Below, in pieces: positions 4,807 to 40,792 of a stretch of 64,000 bases of DNA (positions within the stretch are counted from its first letter, which is position 1; every line of letters begins with the position of its first letter). The translations under genes and the position numbers were made by a program. The DNA is from Escherichia phage T4: the sequence record OZ209023.1. One strand, given 5' to 3'. A model generated the notes under the pieces. It saw only the letters and a list, made by a program, of their open reading frames with translations. It did no database searches and was not told the DNA's origin.

Positions 4807-5601
4807 CTACGAATAGGCCCAAACATATCCATAAGCAATTTTGCTTTTTCCAGATATGCACTTTTTAATATTAGACATGCATCCTTTAACGGATACAGCT
4901 GCGTCTTTAATTCTAGGAAATACTCGTAATAATTTTCCAGTAGTATCATATTGAAATACTGGCACATTTCTTTTCTGAGTTATCCCACGTTTAGATTTAG
5001 ACATTTTTTGTTTAGTTGCATTAGACATCCTAGAGGGCTTTCCTATGTTATCAGAATAATAATATTTCCATTGAAATCCTCCAGCGGTTTTCCTTTTACC
5101 ATCTACACATTGTTTAATTGAAGTTGAACAGCTATATGACATATCTTCTGCAGCATCTGTAATACATCTATATTTGCGAATAAAATTTCCATTTAAATCA
5201 TATTGATAAATTGGTTTTCCAGCATTTCGTCTAGCGTTAGACATGTATTTTTTATTATCATCATCTTTCCAGAACTCTTTCATGCTTTCCGATATTGAAG
5301 AAGATACAGCTGTTTTAATCCATCCATACATTTTATTATTTAGTCTTGTTCCGTCAGAACTATAACACATCATACGAATAGCTAAAGCCAATTTAGGAAG
5401 TCTATAAATTTTAAATAATAATAAATGCGCGGTAAAATGTTCTTCTGGTGTCAAAAGAACTAAATTAGTTTTATCATCTGTACCACCCATACATCTAGGA
5501 ATTATATGATGTGTTTCAGTATAGTATGTCAAAAGACTTTTATCATTGTCTCTGTTTAGTCCTTTTTCGATCAGTAAATTATATATGTTTAAATAATTCA
5601 T
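4807..5601 (-). CDS. HNH homing endonuclease (Mob family; likely T4 mobB)
   Basis: 264-aa ORF; HNH motif HHIIPRCMGGTDDKTNLVLLTPEEHFTAH; N-terminus MNYLNIY as in the two other HNH ORFs of this window. Confidence 0.8.
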   Translation of the reverse strand: MNYLNIYNLLIEKGLNRDNDKSLLTYYTETHHIIPRCMGGTDDKTNLVLLTPEEHFTAHLLLFKIYRLPKLALAIRMMCYSSDGTRLNNKMYGWIKTAVSSSISESMKEFWKDDDNKKYMSNARRNAGKPIYQYDLNGNFIRKYRCITDAAEDMSYSCSTSIKQCVDGKRKTAGGFQWKYYYSDNIGKPSRMSNATKQKMSKSKRGITQKRNVPVFQYDTTGKLLRVFPRIKDAAVSVKGCMSNIKKCISGKSKIAYGYVWAYS

Positions 5602-9367: not shown

Positions 9368-9838
9368 TTAATCATGTTTCCACACCCCATCGGTATTTGA
9401 CCAAAGTCGCTGATTATCTGATCCTCGCCACAGCTTTTTGGTCGGAAGATTTTTCTCATACTTCCCATCAATAATAACATCAACATATTTAAGCATTTCT
9501 AGTTGTTTAATATCTTCAAACTTATATCCTGTCCACAACCAGATATCTTTCTCCGGAAATCTTGCTTTAACCCAAGAAACTAAATTTGAAATCTCTTCTC
9601 GGTTCTGTGGATAAAGTGGGTCACCGCCGGTTAAGGTAAGGCCTTGGATATACGATTTGCTTAAATGGGACGCAAGTTCTTTAACGGTATTCATAGTGAA
9701 TAACTGTCCGTTACGAGCATTCCAAGTACTACGATTATAACAACCTTCGCATTTATGCAAACATCCAGTGACGAAGAGAACGACCCTACATCCAGGGCCG
9801 TTAACGAAATCGCATGGATAAATTCTATCATAATTCAT
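9368..9838 (-). CDS. nrdG: Anaerobic ribonucleotide reductase activase NrdG (radical SAM)
   Basis: 156 aa from the ATG at 9836-9838; MNYDRIYPCDFVNGPGCRVVLFVTGCLHKCEGC cysteine cluster; the track ORF 9368-9922 carries a spurious N-terminal extension. Confidence 0.85.
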   Translation of the reverse strand: MNYDRIYPCDFVNGPGCRVVLFVTGCLHKCEGCYNRSTWNARNGQLFTMNTVKELASHLSKSYIQGLTLTGGDPLYPQNREEISNLVSWVKARFPEKDIWLWTGYKFEDIKQLEMLKYVDVIIDGKYEKNLPTKKLWRGSDNQRLWSNTDGVWKHD

Positions 9839-10460
9839 CTTTATATTTCCAAGTATATCCCTTATGAATAGATTGAATTCCTTTGCAACATTTATAAACA
9901 GCAGAATGAAAAAATCCTGCATTTCTTATTTCAGTTGCTCCAGTTAGTTCTATTGTATTTCCGTCTGGTGAATAGCCAATAACCGTTTTGGTGTTAAAGC
10001 GATTTCTAGAACTATTTTTGATATGCTCTTTATGATTAGTAGACAAAGTTCTTCCTGTTAGCCCATCAGATATCCTTTTTCCAAAATCATCAGGAAGAGT
10101 TACTTTAGACCTAGCTATGCTCATTAGCTTCTTAGTTTTATCGCTTCTTTTTGCGCCACGCTGATTTTCAAATTTCTTAGCTTTTGCATACGCGTATTGT
10201 GAAGAAGTAACTTTTCTATGCTTACTATTACTCATTATCCAATATGCATCATACATCTTTCCACCATATATTTTAGCCAATAAATGGTGAGCAGTATAGT
10301 GGGCCTTATAAGTTAAAAATACTAAGTTGTCTAAATCATCTGAACCACCCATACTTCTTGGAATTATATGATGAAGTTCATACCCGGCTTTAGTTTGACG
10401 GGGCTTAGATGGGTGTTCAGCAGAATTAACTAGATTTGAATAGATTCTGTCATAATTCAT
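9828..10460 (-). CDS. mobC: HNH homing endonuclease between nrdD and nrdG (T4 mobC position)
   Basis: 210 aa; HHIIPRSMGGSDDLDNLVFLTYKAHYTAHH; its 3' end overlaps the nrdG start. Confidence 0.75.
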   Translation of the reverse strand: MNYDRIYSNLVNSAEHPSKPRQTKAGYELHHIIPRSMGGSDDLDNLVFLTYKAHYTAHHLLAKIYGGKMYDAYWIMSNSKHRKVTSSQYAYAKAKKFENQRGAKRSDKTKKLMSIARSKVTLPDDFGKRISDGLTGRTLSTNHKEHIKNSSRNRFNTKTVIGYSPDGNTIELTGATEIRNAGFFHSAVYKCCKGIQSIHKGYTWKYKDEL

Positions 10461-11736
10461 TGGTGCTTAACCCTATGCATGATTTCTTTATTTTTACCGA
10501 GATTAAATCCGCGTTCGTTCGGATTTCCCAAATAACCACATGTTCTTCTTATGGTATTCATCTTTTTAGGATCAGTTTCTCCACAAATAGAACAAACAAA
10601 TCCGTTTTCAGTAGGAGTCATTTCATGGGTACTTCCACATGTAAAACATTTATCTACTGGCATATTAACACCAAAATAATCTAAATGCTGTGCAGCATAA
10701 TCCCACACGGCCTCAAGACCTTTTAAGTTATTTTTCATATCAGGAAGTTCAACATAAGAAATGTGACCACCTGTCGCAATGAAATGATATGGCGCTTCAC
10801 GAGAAATCTTTTCAAACGGAGTAATATTTTCTTCTACTGAAACATGGAAACTGTTAGTGTACCAGCCTTTATCGGTAACATCTTTTACGCTTCCATATTT
10901 TTCTGTATCGAGTTTACAGAAGCGATAACACAGGTTTTCAGCAGGAGTCGAATATAAACTAAAAGCAAATCCGGTTCTTTCAGTCCACTGTTTAAGATGA
11001 GCATTCATTTTAGTTAAAATTTCTCGTCCAATATCACGACCGACAAGAATATTCAATTCGTGAATACCAATGTATCCTAAAGACACTGAACTTCTACCGT
11101 TTTTAAATAACTCAATTATGTCGTCATCAGGTTTAAGACGAACCCCGAATGCACCTTCTTGGTAAAGAATAGGAGCAACAGTAGCTTTAACTCCTTTTAA
11201 GGAACTAATTCTACACATCAAAGCTTCAAAACATAAATCCATTCGTTCATTAAATAGCTCAACAAATTTCTGTTCATTGAACTGTGTTCCAATATAAGAA
11301 TCTAACGCGATGCGAGGAAGATTCAGTGTTACAACACCAAGATTATTGCGTCCATCAAGAATTTCATTGCCAGTCGAATCTTTCCATACGCTCAAGAAAC
11401 TACGGCAACCCATCGGAGAAACAGGAACAGATGAACCAGTGATAGCTTTATTGTTCTTAGCTGAAATAATATCAGGATACATCCTTTTGCTTGCGCACTC
11501 TAGAGCAAGCTGTTTAATATCATAGTTCGGATCGTCTTTATAAAGATTAACACCTTCTTCAACGAACATAACAAGCTTAGGGAAAATAGGAGTTATCCCA
11601 TCACGACCAAGACCTTTAATACGATTTTTCAGAATTGCTTTCTGAATCATTCGTTCAGTCCAGTCAGTTCCCGTACCAAATGTAATTGTTACAAAAGGAG
11701 TCTGTCCGTTTGAACTGAATAACGTGTTCACTTCAT
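10457..11736 (-). CDS. nrdD: Anaerobic ribonucleotide reductase NrdD, exon 2
   Basis: Glycyl-radical C-terminus RRTCGYLG; frame continuous to the inferred 3' splice site; the two exons total 606 codons. Confidence 0.8.
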
Positions 11737-12769
11737 CAATGTGTTCAGTAGAGTTCGCTACTTCTCTACCCGTTTATATGAAACAATGTAATTTGGATAA
11801 TTGTCATCTAAACACAAATCTTTAATACGACTTGGGTGGAGTTTTAAATCTTTAGCAGCATCCACAAATGATTTATAGATATTGTCATTTATTTTAACAT
11901 ATTCTGGGACGGGATGAATTGTTATTTTTATATCTATAACATTTGGATGATTACTAACCTGTTCTTCAGAGCATTTAAGAAATTTTGCAGCTGATTTAAA
12001 ACTTCTAAATTTATTTCCGGATTTTAAAGCTATAGAAACAGTCTTTTTAGCCGTTCTACTACCAATATTATTTTTAACATGAGCTTCACTTCTACTATTA
12101 TTTTTATAATGCTCAATCAATTTCTCTCGTATCTTATCTTTATGTTTTAAAGATAAGATTTTACCTTTATGGGCATTACTAAGTTTTTGCTTATGTTCTT
12201 CTGAATCCGGATATTTGTTAAATTTATATCCACCTATAGATTTATTAAGAATAAATTCGTTATTAAAATATTTCCTAATAAGCATTTCTTCATGTTTAAG
12301 GGCCGATTCATAAGAATCAAAAACTTGAAGAATTATCCACTTAGCTTTATAATCTTTAAGCTTTTCTTTAACAAGCTTAGATGACGAATTGTATTCTTTC
12401 CAATTTGTATCTTTACCATATATAGTTTTGAATTTTTTAAAACCTATATAAAAAGACTTATCAGGAAATCTTACCATATAGGTAAATGCTACAGAATTGG
12501 CAATTTTTAAGCTTTTTCTTAATTTCCATTTCATCGTTTCACCTCGTATTCATATTTATACGAGGATAAACAGCTGCATGTCACCATGCAGTTCAGACTA
12601 TATCTTCAACTCTTAGAGTTGTCTGCCGTTTCGGGTCGCTTGACCCTACTCCCTTACATTCATCAGGGATAGTCGTTGGGCATTTACAGCTACTGCTGAT
12701 TTAGCAACGGATTGTCTCAGTGAGAGTTTCCCGTTTTAGGCAGATTTTACATGAGCTTGACTTACGTTA
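11737..12769 (-). mobile_element. Group I self-splicing intron in nrdD (inferred length 1033 nt) carrying I-TevII
   Basis: Exon 1 frame hits a stop at 12762-12764; boundaries inferred from a 605-aa NrdD, exon ending in U and intron ending in G. Confidence 0.65.
11758..12534 (-). CDS. GIY-YIG intron homing endonuclease I-TevII
   Basis: 258-aa ORF inside the nrdD intron; GIY-YIG-like N-terminus (YMVRF...FYIGF). Confidence 0.8.
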   Translation of the reverse strand: MKWKLRKSLKIANSVAFTYMVRFPDKSFYIGFKKFKTIYGKDTNWKEYNSSSKLVKEKLKDYKAKWIILQVFDSYESALKHEEMLIRKYFNNEFILNKSIGGYKFNKYPDSEEHKQKLSNAHKGKILSLKHKDKIREKLIEHYKNNSRSEAHVKNNIGSRTAKKTVSIALKSGNKFRSFKSAAKFLKCSEEQVSNHPNVIDIKITIHPVPEYVKINDNIYKSFVDAAKDLKLHPSRIKDLCLDDNYPNYIVSYKRVEK

Positions 12770-22356: not shown

Positions 22357-23367
22357 TCATTTATAATAACTTCGATGGTTTTCAAGATAAACCCTCTCAA
22401 GGAAGTCATCCCAGAAACTCATGTCTACTTTTTGCTGCATACCGTTCTTAGAAGCTTCAGTAGATGCTGCTTCTACTTGATCGACCACATCTTCCAAAAA
22501 CTCTTGAACGGTTTTAAATGGATGCTTACCCAACTTCACGTCGAGAATAAATGGAGCATCTTGGAGTGGATAAACCAAGTCACCAGTTTTGTAAATTTCC
22601 AATAGTTGAAGTCCACCACGACAAGCATGGCTCAGAGCTTTCCAGTCAATGCCTTCATTGGCTTCGGCCTTACGAGCACGTTCGCCGTATTCAGCATCTA
22701 ATTTGTTCAGTGACTGCTTAAGCTCAATAAGAGAAAGCGTTGTCTGATATTTACGACCCAACACTGTGTAAAACGTTTGTGGGCCTGTTTTCTCATGATT
22801 ATGGAACACCCATTCACAGAATTCGTTTTCTGGAAGACGATGCTTAATATCTTCAACTTTAGTACGACGCTGCTTAATGGAACCATCTTCTTGGTAATCA
22901 ACCCATTGCTCAGGGATTTGATTAACTACTTTCAATACATCGCGTAATGCAGCCAAACGAGAACCCTTGACGCCGTATTTAGAAGCTTGCTTGCGGACAT
23001 ATCCTAAATATGATTTCATGTTAGTCGTATAAAAACGAGAACGGTTGTCTTGAATAAACTTCCACACATCAGGCAAATCGGATTTAACCACTAGTTCAGG
23101 TGGAGTGTGGAGCATATCCAATGCTACAGTTTCACCATCTGCTGCTAATTTAAAGAAATACTTAAGACTATACAATTCGTGGTCAATATCATCTTTAGTG
23201 TTTTTAGATGATGTGTTGTTGGTATTTTTACTCATGTGCTCTTTGACGTTTCCAATAAGAATATCGCGAGCAGGAGGAACAAAGATTTCTTTAAAATCTA
23301 CATCAGATTCTGGAGTAGAAGTTCCATAAAGATGACTACCAAAATAAGACTTAACTACAGTTTTCAT
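22357..23367 (-). CDS. Predicted nucleotidyltransferase-fold protein (nrdC.11 position); start uncertain
   Basis: ~336 aa; N-terminal GSHLYGTSTPESDVDF resembles the Pol-beta-type NTase G[SG]...D.D motif; ATGs at 23367, 23382 and 23391 are possible starts. Confidence 0.55.
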   Translation of the reverse strand: MKTVVKSYFGSHLYGTSTPESDVDFKEIFVPPARDILIGNVKEHMSKNTNNTSSKNTKDDIDHELYSLKYFFKLAADGETVALDMLHTPPELVVKSDLPDVWKFIQDNRSRFYTTNMKSYLGYVRKQASKYGVKGSRLAALRDVLKVVNQIPEQWVDYQEDGSIKQRRTKVEDIKHRLPENEFCEWVFHNHEKTGPQTFYTVLGRKYQTTLSLIELKQSLNKLDAEYGERARKAEANEGIDWKALSHACRGGLQLLEIYKTGDLVYPLQDAPFILDVKLGKHPFKTVQEFLEDVVDQVEAASTEASKNGMQQKVDMSFWDDFLERVYLENHRSYYK

Positions 23368-24130
23368 TATTAGACCTTTCATAATCTTCATTAAATTGTA
23401 CAATCAATCGATGATAATTAGATTTTGGATATCCTAATTTACTTATATAAGTTCCGAATGACCCACGTTTAGGTCTATTTAATTTAATCCATAACTTATA
23501 AAGTAAGTCATAGTCTTGCCAATGTTTACCAGTTCTTTGTCTAATTTTAGATGAATTTGATTGTTTCTTTTTAGTTTCAAAATTATTCAAAGATTTTTTG
23601 ACTGCAGCAGAGTGTTTTTCTTTAACTCCCGGTCGTTTAAAAGCAGCTTTCACCCCTTTAGATATTTTTTCTTTAACTTCCGGTTTGTTTTGTGCTTCTA
23701 ACTGGGATTCTGAAATTTTAGCCCTTATTTCAGGAAGACTTAATGTTATCGAACGTTTTTCTCTGTATTCATTAGACTTCCACATTTCTTTCATTGTATT
23801 AGAATGTATTTTTGAAAATTTTTCTCTAACTAACTGATATCCTCTTGAAGTTAATTTGAGATTTCTTCCTAAAGAATCTTCTCCAAAATTATAAAATGAC
23901 CACCATGCATAAATTAATCCAGGCGAATTGTAATGAATTTTAGCTAAAAGCCAATGGGCTATAAAATGCTCTCTAGCTGTTAATAAAACTAGATTATCAG
24001 AATCATCATTACCACCAATACAAGATGGAATAATATGATGCTTTTCCGTATAAAAATTTAATTTAGATTTATCTAATTTTCTGAGTTTTCCTTTCTTAAT
24101 TAAATTATTATATACTTTAGTATAATTCAT
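23351..24130 (-). CDS. mobD: HNH homing endonuclease (T4 mobD position)
   Basis: 259 aa; HHIIPSCIGGNDDSDNLVLLTAREHFIAH; N-terminus MNYTKVY. Confidence 0.75.
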   Translation of the reverse strand: MNYTKVYNNLIKKGKLRKLDKSKLNFYTEKHHIIPSCIGGNDDSDNLVLLTAREHFIAHWLLAKIHYNSPGLIYAWWSFYNFGEDSLGRNLKLTSRGYQLVREKFSKIHSNTMKEMWKSNEYREKRSITLSLPEIRAKISESQLEAQNKPEVKEKISKGVKAAFKRPGVKEKHSAAVKKSLNNFETKKKQSNSSKIRQRTGKHWQDYDLLYKLWIKLNRPKRGSFGTYISKLGYPKSNYHRLIVQFNEDYERSNNENCS

Positions 24131-32330: not shown

Positions 32331-32633
32331 TTATTTATCTTTAATTGCTTTAGCTGCTTCGATAGCCGCTTGCTGAAGGTCATCCATAGACATGCCGAAC
32401 TTAGAAGCAAAGTTATCAATTTTCTTTTCGACGGCATTCAAAGGCTTGGCCTGTTTACCTTCATTAGCGCCAGGAAGAGCGAGAATACGCTCTCTGTCAA
32501 TATAAAGGCTTACAAGTTTCTTACGGTCTTTATCGGGCAAATCATGAAATGAATGGGCCTTTTTATTTACAGCGGCTTCTAATTTACCTGCGCCCACTCG
32601 CGCTTCGGCAATAAATTCTTGATATGTTTTCAT
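32331..32633 (-). CDS. ipII: Internal protein II
   Basis: 100 aa; N-terminal MKTYQEFIAEA capsid-targeting sequence. Confidence 0.85.
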   Translation of the reverse strand: MKTYQEFIAEARVGAGKLEAAVNKKAHSFHDLPDKDRKKLVSLYIDRERILALPGANEGKQAKPLNAVEKKIDNFASKFGMSMDDLQQAAIEAAKAIKDK

Positions 32634-32748: not shown

Positions 32749-33330
32749 TTAAGAATTACCACGGGCTGCATTAGCAACGGCGTAAGCGTACTGAATATTA
32801 GCGTCTTTAAACTTACCTTTAGAGGTATCTATTTCTGCCTTAAAGCCGCCTTTAGTCATAACATCGGCAAATTCTTTACGGAAAGCCATTGCATCAAGAC
32901 CTTTCCATGATGATTTATGCTTGGCAAATTCAAGACCTGCGAAGTTGACAGCTTTAGCCAATTTATTATCAATGACCCATTTACCGGCTTTAGGCACAAA
33001 CTTCGGGCCTTTCTGTTTAGAGAACAGTTTTAAATTCCAGCGGCGAAGGTCTGCATCAGCTTTAACAAATTCTGAGTCTAAGTTACTAGCAACAACATCT
33101 TCAATATGAGCAAATTTAAGTCCGTCAACTTCAATATTTAAATCGGTACGCCAGCGAAGTCCTTCCCAAGCGAAGGCTTTAAAGTCGGAAGCCTTTGTAG
33201 CTAAGTACCGTTCAATAGGAGCTGTTTTAGGGTCAAAGCCGTTTCCTGATCGGTAGGTCCACTCATCTTTGTTAATGCCTTTGGCCTTTACTACAGAAGC
33301 TTCGGCAATAAATTCTTGATATGTTTTCAT
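32749..33330 (-). CDS. ipIII: Internal protein III
   Basis: 193 aa; N-terminal MKTYQEFIAEA capsid-targeting sequence. Confidence 0.85.
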   Translation of the reverse strand: MKTYQEFIAEASVVKAKGINKDEWTYRSGNGFDPKTAPIERYLATKASDFKAFAWEGLRWRTDLNIEVDGLKFAHIEDVVASNLDSEFVKADADLRRWNLKLFSKQKGPKFVPKAGKWVIDNKLAKAVNFAGLEFAKHKSSWKGLDAMAFRKEFADVMTKGGFKAEIDTSKGKFKDANIQYAYAVANAARGNS

Positions 33331-40504: not shown

Positions 40505-40792
40505 TTACAAAAGATTTTTAGCAATAATCTTGAGATGTGCCGCAGAAATGTGTTTAGCTTTAAACAACGCAGTTTCTTCAGCAGGAGAGATAACGATTGT
40601 AGCACCATCCTTTTTAGCAGACCACCCATCACCTAGGTAAACAGTACCTTTGATTTCTTCGCCATCAACCAGACTAATCATTGGTTTACCTTCTCGTCCT
40701 TTATTTGCTTTAATAACTTCAGAAGTAAGAGTAGCTTCGGTAATGGTAGAAACCGGGGTAGTTGTAGAAGTAAATTCTTTAAATGTTTTCAT
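40505..40792 (-). CDS. ipI: Internal protein I (known inhibitor of the GmrSD restriction system)
   Basis: 95 aa; MKTFKEFTSTTTPVSTI with the capsid-targeting N-terminus shared by ipII/ipIII. Confidence 0.8.
   Translation of the reverse strand: MKTFKEFTSTTTPVSTITEATLTSEVIKANKGREGKPMISLVDGEEIKGTVYLGDGWSAKKDGATIVISPAEETALFKAKHISAAHLKIIAKNLL

Follow-up and report, generated by a model that had tools for sequence, protein, structure and literature searches.

The beginning of nrdG, the gene of the anaerobic ribonucleotide reductase activase, is present twice in Escherichia phage T4. Its first 21 nucleotides (nt) recur with little change as the first 21 nt of mobC, a gene for a free-standing HNH homing endonuclease which separates nrdG from nrdD. 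We follow this repeat here in a stretch of 64,000 nt (sequence record OZ209023.1, the whole of which we call the window), where the 2,364 nt around it are 100% identical to Escherichia phage T4. Most probably the repeat is the left-hand joint left by recombination when a homing-endonuclease cassette was inserted within the 5′ end of nrdG, and not between genes. As far as the sequence can tell, the structure is a succession of nrdD, an nrdG-type start of about 20 nt placed in frame with the body of mobC, and a complete nrdG with a donor-derived first segment of 110-296 nt. This reading draws on the anatomy of the locus, on an upstream copy that tracks the lineage of the resident phage, on a downstream tract of donor type, and on the recurrence of the same layout with a second HNH gene. 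The genes follow one another on the minus strand as nrdD 3′ exon, mobC, nrdG, and the RefSeq annotation of T4 names the three open reading frames (ORFs) of the window accordingly. The features needed are the following.

10457-11731, minus strand: ORF of the nrdD 3′ exon, whose 3′ end is the left homology arm, ~97-98% identical to T2
10457-10460, minus strand: ATGA overlap, the nrdD stop TGA over the mobC ATG
10437-10460, minus strand: upstream repeat copy, the first 21 (24) nt of mobC, ATGAATTATGACAGAATCTAT(TCA), an nrdG-type initiation region serving as the mobC start
9828-10460, minus strand: mobC ORF (its RefSeq name), 210 amino acids, the free-standing HNH homing endonuclease gene
9828-9838, minus strand: 11-nt overlap of the mobC 3′ and nrdG 5′ ends, the mobC stop TGA (9828-9830) being nt 9-11 of nrdG
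9815-9838, minus strand: downstream repeat copy, the first 21 (24) nt of nrdG, ATGAATTATGATAGAATTTAT(CCA), the functional nrdG start, which travels with the cassette
9368-9838, minus strand: nrdG, 156 amino acids, anaerobic ribonucleotide reductase activase with Pfam Fer4_12 and Radical_SAM matches

The initial annotation of this DNA had noted that the nrdG start is repeated at the start of the HNH ORF, 622 bp away, and that both proteins begin MNYDRIY. Both statements are correct: ATGAATTATGATAGAATTTAT (9818-9838) and ATGAATTATGACAGAATCTAT (10440-10460) agree at 19 of 21 positions, and the two differences are synonymous. Extended, the repeat reaches 21 of 24 nt at a spacing of 622 nt and is the longest direct repeat of the region. 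With up to three mismatches allowed, the 21-mer is found at only two sites in the 64-kb window, for 0.02 expected by chance. MobC itself has the hallmarks of its class, matching the Pfam HNH profile PF01844 at residues 28-50 (27.6 bits for a cut-off of 21.4), with H30, H31, N45, H54 and H58, the residues of the HNH (His-Me finger) motif, invariant in the family alignment.

At the upstream end, the nrdD stop had been said to overlap the HNH ATG exactly as it would overlap nrdG if the HNH gene were absent. This is what five relatives without the homing-endonuclease gene (HEG) display: T2, F1, Sf24, SA79RD and moskry have the identical ATGA overlap with nrdD directly on nrdG, and the same context of the nrdG start, so that the comparison proposed as a possible refutation leaves the reading standing. 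The downstream end was misplaced: the mobC stop does not lie on the nrdG ATG but at nt 9-11 of nrdG, so that the MobC tail, ..DEL*, is the nrdG start read in another frame. The proposed insertion of a cassette is retained, with a site inside nrdG, after about nt 20, in place of an intergenic one.

Joints of mobC and of a second HNH gene in relatives of T4

mobC is an optional gene. Of 837 matching phage records, 31 cover the mobC-containing query and most others have nrdD abutting nrdG: close relatives differ in having or lacking the gene between neighbours that are conserved. Its carriers belong to two genera, with T4 strains and other Tequatroviruses (HP3, SHFML-11, ELT1 and others) on the one hand, and the Jiaodaviruses Boboto, Wolf_ER13 and Shark_ER15, which are Klebsiella phages, on the other. 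The 601-nt body of mobC is 99.3-100% identical in all 31 records, whereas its flanks match those of T4 at 96-97.5% in other Tequatroviruses and at 74-76% in the Klebsiella Jiaodaviruses. A conserved body, flanks at 74-97% and nrdG tracts of donor type (see below) are together what horizontal spread with co-conversion of the flank leaves behind, and the spread of mobC looks recent.

The left joint can be read in the Klebsiella phages. In Boboto and Wolf_ER13 the 633-nt mobC ORF differs from that of T4 solely at nt 8 and 9, while Shark_ER15 has these two changes and four others. The changes make codon 3 TTC (TAT in T4), as in the resident Jiaodavirus nrdG, represented by the mobC-less JD18, where gp52, a small DUF7415 gene, immediately precedes an nrdG that starts ATGAATTTCGACAGAATCTACCC. 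Boboto matches JD18 without a difference across gp52 and as far as nt 20 of nrdG, and is identical to T4 mobC from nt 10 on; these overlapping identities place the left joint within a shared 11-mer, GACAGAATCTA, common to the JD18 nrdG start and the T4 mobC start. This is a microhomology junction, and the homology around it is one-sided, since a Jiaodavirus has gp52 upstream of nrdG in place of the nrdD 3′ end and shares only nrdG with a T4-type donor. In both genera nt 1-9 of the mobC copy track the nrdG of the resident, with TAT in Tequatrovirus and TTC in Jiaodavirus.

On the other side of the cassette, the downstream copy of T4 type also stands behind mobC in the Klebsiella phages, with their different resident nrdG start. 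In Wolf_ER13 the nrdG behind mobC has the T4 type at all 24 informative sites as far as nt 110, and from nt 124 it is of JD18 type; in Boboto the 5′ end is T4-type at 23 of 24 such sites, and the nrdG of Shark_ER15 contains a short non-T4 patch at nt 24-36. We read this donor-type nrdG behind the cassette as a co-conversion tract. The two copies of the repeat are only 17/21 alike in Boboto and Wolf_ER13, where the upstream one matches the resident type at 20/21 and the downstream one is of donor type. That one copy follows the resident and the other the donor is what a recombination joint would produce, and not a transposon duplication or concerted evolution.

The same layout returns, at greater length, with a different HNH gene of 278-279 amino acids that occupies the same site in the Jiaodaviruses SmallBear_ER8, Mexia and ValerieMcCarty03. 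Its product is 33% identical to MobC over 100 residues in the HNH region (E = 2e-8), with a NUMOD-like, sub-threshold C-terminus. The first 40 nt of this gene are the resident nrdG start (MNFDRIYPSDFVN, followed by DKL...), and its reading frame closes with ...GYNWKYINEL*, for which a second, variant nrdG start supplies the TGA (nt 9-11 of that start). The Tequatrovirus orthologues (Yersinia phage PST, OMNI12), which are 86% identical, start instead with the T2-type 40 nt of nrdG (MNYDRFYPCDFVN, followed by DKL...), and in OMNI12 this start is identical to T2 nrdG at 40 of 40 positions. The fusion point, between GTGAATG and ATAA, is the same in both genera. Since distant homologues align only from residue ~16-46, the first 13 codons of the gene are host-derived. 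It seems clear from these alignments that family consensus cannot explain the 40-nt segment, and that the architecture is that of T4, where the fragment is shorter.

This second HNH gene is found in 32 phage records; amino-acid identity is ≥99% in 10 of them and 80-90% in the other 22. Besides its position in PST (locus L100, 701-1540), where it is labelled 'mobC', it is present in loci L013-L015. It looks like a separate occupant of the nrdD/nrdG site, one without a name of its own, and some caution is in order with annotations, as two unrelated-looking genes at this site are both called 'mobC' in public records.

A direct repeat that brackets inserted DNA would also be expected from a target-site duplication, made by transposase-like insertion of the cassette. 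Of the explanations considered this is the least probable, to the point of being hardly credible: the cassette is not bounded by terminal inverted repeats and no transposase is present, the length of the repeat differs between the two HNH genes (~21 and 40 nt), the copies are non-identical and of separate origins, resident and donor, and a long co-conversion tract flanks the insertion. As identical copies of fixed length, inverted repeats and a transposase are all missing, we rejected it. Concerted evolution, in which ongoing intragenomic gene conversion would maintain the repeat so that it would not be a relic, is scarcely better placed. The T4 copies, with their two synonymous differences, could be taken as homogenised, but the state of Boboto and Wolf_ER13 just described says otherwise, and the 40-nt copies in the phages with the second HNH gene differ at several sites. 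Each copy follows its own lineage, so that there is no homogenisation, and this explanation was rejected as well.

Very improbable too, if slightly less so, is convergent selection on translation initiation, according to which a shared need for an A/T-rich, ATGA-coupled start would have shaped both genes, and no recombination would have taken place. It is true that both starts lie in stop/start overlaps, and that ATGAATTATGA, with stops in both other frames, is useful for coupling. Yet identity ends at sharp boundaries, at nt 20 in mobC and nt 40 in the second HNH gene, and it tracks genus-specific synonymous variants, which led us to reject pure convergence. Moreover, phages of the SHFML-11 type have the nrdD stop 12 nt upstream of the mobC ATG, with the 21-mer unchanged.

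The mosaic nrdG of T4 and how the cassette may have entered

Compared with T2, the T4 sequence is ~97-98% identical in nrdD up to the junction, then heavily diverged over nt 16-297 of nrdG, then 98.9% identical again. Three tracts can be distinguished in the gene.

9729-9838, minus strand: nrdG nt 1-110, variant tract linked to the HEG, by sub-segment 76-95% identical to the T2 type and 76-80% to the JD18 type
9543-9728, minus strand: nrdG nt 111-296, tract of Jiaodavirus type (identity 93.5% with JD18, 54% with T2), co-converted with mobC
9368-9542, minus strand: nrdG nt 297-471, resident Tequatrovirus type, 98.9% identical to T2, beyond the right-hand crossover

Besides genomes with mobC, the best database matches to nt 1-300 of the T4 gene are Klebsiella phages, at ~90%. 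Codons 38-99 have no nonsynonymous difference with JD18 and 28 with T2; at the protein level, NrdG residues ~38-99 are identical to those of Klebsiella Jiaodavirus JD18, and residues 100-156 are T2-type. With its JD18-like nt 111-296 and its T2-like 3′ part, the gene encodes a chimeric NrdG, so that the reference phage T4 makes an activase with ~60 residues of Klebsiella-phage type. From this we infer a Jiaodavirus-like phage as the source from which the Tequatrovirus lineage acquired the cassette.

Within the first tract, nt 56-110 deserve attention. This segment, which encodes the CxxxCxxC cluster motif, is 98-100% T4-type in seven of the seven mobC-carrying genomes compared. The HEG-less T2 and JD18 are 92.7% alike there, and the T4 type is 80% identical to both, through changes that are mostly synonymous. 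It is a candidate target or immunity region of MobC. More broadly, we predict that MobC has its target in nt ~20-110 of nrdG. This gives a concrete expectation for the enzyme: it would act in the first ~110 nt, in the region of the radical-SAM cluster motif, and the T4 allele would be an immune variant.

We propose the following course of events, in which we infer that MobC cleaves and where, that translation is coupled, and in which direction the cassette was transferred. MobC would nick or cut an HEG-less nrdG within the first ~110 nt; the break would be repaired from a mobC-carrying genome, with copying of mobC and of donor nrdG sequence. The right end would be resolved by ordinary nrdG homology, which would leave a co-conversion tract, while the left end, where upstream homology is missing, would be resolved at the similarity between the recipient nrdG start and the mobC 5′ end. 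Microhomology junctions of this kind arise in the one-sided homing of the td intron in T4 (Parker et al., 1999, as summarised in PMC2988022). Because the HNH family start, MNYxKIY, resembles the nrdG start, MN(Y/F)DR(I/F)Y, such a swap would be in register and leave a working protein, and the family start probably served as the microhomology for it. mobC would take over the nrdG start codon, together with its ATGA stop/start coupling to nrdD, and nrdG would keep an equivalent start, now coupled to mobC termination 8 nt downstream of its AUG.

A more general picture may be sketched, to which we give somewhat less than even credence. The HNH genes at this locus could be '5′-end replacement cassettes' and not truly free-standing. 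They would insert in frame a few codons into nrdG and be expressed from the nrdG start and coupling as N-terminal chimeras, and the host gene would be restored by a recoded, presumably cleavage-resistant 5′ copy. The MNYxKIY start would then act as a built-in microhomology arm for crossing into genomes that have no upstream homology, and across genera (E. coli and Klebsiella phages), T4 being left with a chimeric NrdG.

It remains to weigh how much of the repeat is owed to the endonuclease family, which the initial annotation had held responsible for part of the similarity. In an alignment of MobC with 12 relatives, M1, Y3 and Y7 are invariant, and N2, K/R5 and I6 frequent, which gives the family start MNYxKIY. 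These relatives are distant metagenomic homologues, returned by a protein-database search with MobC in which T4 itself was not among the hits, and they are used for their N-termini only. As a baseline, an alignment-based search of IMG/VR yielded 80 loci with 57 distinct start 21-mers, none of these next to nrdG. These unrelated starts match the nrdG 21-mer at 11-18 of 21 positions, mostly 14-17, and none at 19. The two other HNH ORFs of the window, 4807-5601 and 23351-24130 (minus), which are T4 mobB and mobD by position and family, had been said to share MNY only; in fact they start MNYLNIY and MNYTKVY and match at 15/21 and 16/21. A score of 16/21 is also reached by a gene of Klebsiella phage KP27 that resembles mobC, stands beside nrdG and keeps an MNYQKIY start of its own. 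All of this favours the view that MNYDRIY is native to MobC, that nrdG resembles it by family consensus and chance, and that nothing was duplicated in T4. We nevertheless consider this unlikely. Asp4 is found in none of the 57 family starts, nor in 15 others (the 12 metagenomic homologues, mobB, mobD and the KP27 gene), and, unlike Arg5, which occurs in 15 of the 57, it appears nrdG-specific and not family-like. Similarity over the 21-mer is thus largely, but not wholly, a family trait. Furthermore, codon 3 of the Klebsiella mobC copies is the resident TTC, when Y3 is otherwise near-invariant and the rest of the gene up to 100% T4-like, and the second HNH gene bears an unambiguous 40-nt nrdG segment which tracks the resident genus.

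A number of facts nonetheless speak against a recombination joint. The 19/21 of T4 exceeds the family maximum of 18/21 by a single base, and within T4 alone the excess over the family consensus is marginal (binomial p ~0.02-0.07). MobC is in register with its family from residue 1, so that T4 alone is compatible with a native start. The search of IMG/VR gave no nrdG allele identical to the mobC 21-mer, the best ones matching at 20/21 (e11/2-type) and 18/21 (JD18- and T2-type). SmallBear_ER8 has nrdG nt 56-110 of T4 type without mobC, which makes the linkage of mobC with this tract less than absolute. Finally, PMC2988022 lists the activity of MobC as 'ND' and its target as 'unknown', so that the position of the break is a prediction. 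The view of the initial annotation, that this is the footprint of a cassette which copied or converted the nrdG initiation region, is supported all the same, and it is the relatives, not T4 itself, that provide the decisive evidence.

Other occupants and surroundings of the nrdD/nrdG site

The site has had further visitors. segH (GIY-YIG) occupies it in phage e11/2 and others. In e11/2 (locus L003, 1753-1761) segH starts ATGCATAGG (MHR), the same 9 nt as the M-H-R near the end of T4-type nrdD, and a recoded nrdD 3′ end lies upstream of it; segH may have acquired its start from the adjoining gene, as a piece of the nrdD 3′ end. In SHFML-11, ELT1 and BCPShso_001 (L010, L011 and L012, locus ~1400-1480), the nrdD 3′ end is of segH type except for the last 12 nt, which are those of T4-type nrdD and attached out of register. 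The joint is at the 10-nt CATGCATAGG, with the RVKH codons duplicated. We take it as a further microhomology joint at the locus; it suggests that in these three phages mobC displaced segH through an illegitimate left junction.

In Slopekvirus, the mobC-like gene of the KP27 type, 44% identical to MobC, lies immediately upstream of nrdG, unfused. Klebsiella phage ALF_ER54 (L016, ~545-593), which we had considered as an empty site without an HEG, was rejected as such: the last ~60 nt of a KP27-type gene are kept there, fused to an upstream ORF, as a deletion remnant. The homing-gene cycle is seen here, it seems, in its stage of decay. In KP15 (L017) the same place is taken by an unrelated gene of 175 amino acids. 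With mobC, the second HNH gene, segH and the KP27-type gene all at one site, we are dealing with a repeatedly invaded hot spot.

Two features complete the picture of the T4 locus.

11758-12534, minus strand: I-TevII ORF in the nrdD intron, 258 amino acids, with GIY-YIG and NUMOD matches
9889-9896, minus strand: putative late-promoter-like TATAAATG, inside the 3′ end of mobC, 58 nt upstream of the nrdG ATG

I-TevII included, three selfish elements lie within 3 kb around nrdD and nrdG, and ELT1 has another homing-endonuclease ORF upstream in nrdD. Both gene junctions have the overlap or adjacency of stop and start found in coupled pairs, with ATGA for nrdD/mobC and the mobC TGA within the nrdG start. 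Only weak Shine-Dalgarno-like sequences are seen by eye upstream of the mobC and nrdG ATGs, and a scan for sigma-70 promoters and terminators gave nothing above shuffled expectation. A small hairpin at 9901-9920 precedes the late-promoter-like TATAAATG. mobC is described as promoterless (PMC2988022). The literature already covers the gene and its location between nrdD and nrdG, the phages in which segH takes its place, and the general homing model. According to PMC2988022, mobC overlaps the upstream ORF by 24 bp; sequence and RefSeq coordinates give 4 nt (ATGA) with nrdD and 11 nt with nrdG.

An unrelated set of shared starts exists elsewhere in the window. Among three ORFs at 32331-32633, 32749-33330 and 40505-40792 (minus), two start with an identical ATGAAAACATATCAAGAATTT (MKTYQEF) and the third matches at 19/21 (MKTFKEF). 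We take them to be the genes of the T4 internal proteins IPII, IPIII and IPI, which presumably have a common capsid-targeting N-terminus, a start shared in a known manner, which contrasts usefully with mobC and nrdG. In a comparison of all ORF starts of the window, the only other pairs alike at 19/21 or more were those of ipI, ipII and ipIII, the nrdG/mobC pair being left unscored there because the longest-ORF rule put the nrdG start at an upstream ATG.

The cassette among known mobile elements

The literature searched, which did not include the primary paper on the locus (Sandegren et al., 2005, NAR 33:6203), holds no account of the duplicated nrdG start or its lineage tracking, of the 40-nt version in the second HNH gene, of the chimeric T4 NrdG, or of an in-frame HEG insertion with a duplicated, recoded 5′ end. 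A 2012 paper saw no convincing evidence of homing endonucleases crossing species or genus boundaries. The mobC copies of the Klebsiella phages, near-identical homing cassettes in phages of different genera and different hosts, constitute evidence of such a crossing. The locus is a natural example of how a selfish gene without signals of its own can enter the start of a gene in an essential pathway and leave nrdG unbroken: mobC borrows the start codon of its host gene and brings along a spare nrdG 5′ end.

Much of this is familiar from the intronless homing HEGs of T-even phages (SegF, SegG, MobE, SegH; PMC2988022). Here too an HNH gene without a promoter stands between conserved genes, is missing from close relatives and occurs in near-identical copies in divergent genomes, with co-conversion of the neighbouring gene and an alternative occupant, segH. 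Unlike these, mobC is in frame a few codons into its target gene, not intergenic; it borrows the nrdG start codon, and a duplicated, recoded nrdG 5′ end follows it. With one-sided homing of the td intron, a proposed route to ectopic sites, mobC has in common extensive homology on one side and microhomology junctions on the other. That work used engineered substrates, whereas here we are dealing with natural junctions, one of 11 nt where nrdG and mobC start and one of 10 nt in the nrdD 3′ end; they cross genera, and have as their microhomology the N-terminal coding sequence of the HEG itself.

A last parallel is with Aeromonas phage Aeh1, where, as reportedly found by Friedrich and colleagues (PNAS, 2007), insertion of mobE splits nrdA into two genes. 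In both phages an HNH endonuclease gene of the Mob type lies within, not beside, a gene of ribonucleotide reduction whose function is kept. The outcomes differ: Aeh1 makes two polypeptides from the divided host gene, whereas T4 has a second copy of the nrdG 5′ end, an intact nrdG and an endonuclease with a chimeric N-terminus. The nrdD/mobC ATGA overlap, and the mobC stop a few codons from the nrdG AUG, also recall the UAAUGA coupling of nrdA and mobE (PMC2988022), with the difference that the signal at the T4 locus would be that of nrdG itself, taken over by insertion and not evolved by mobC.

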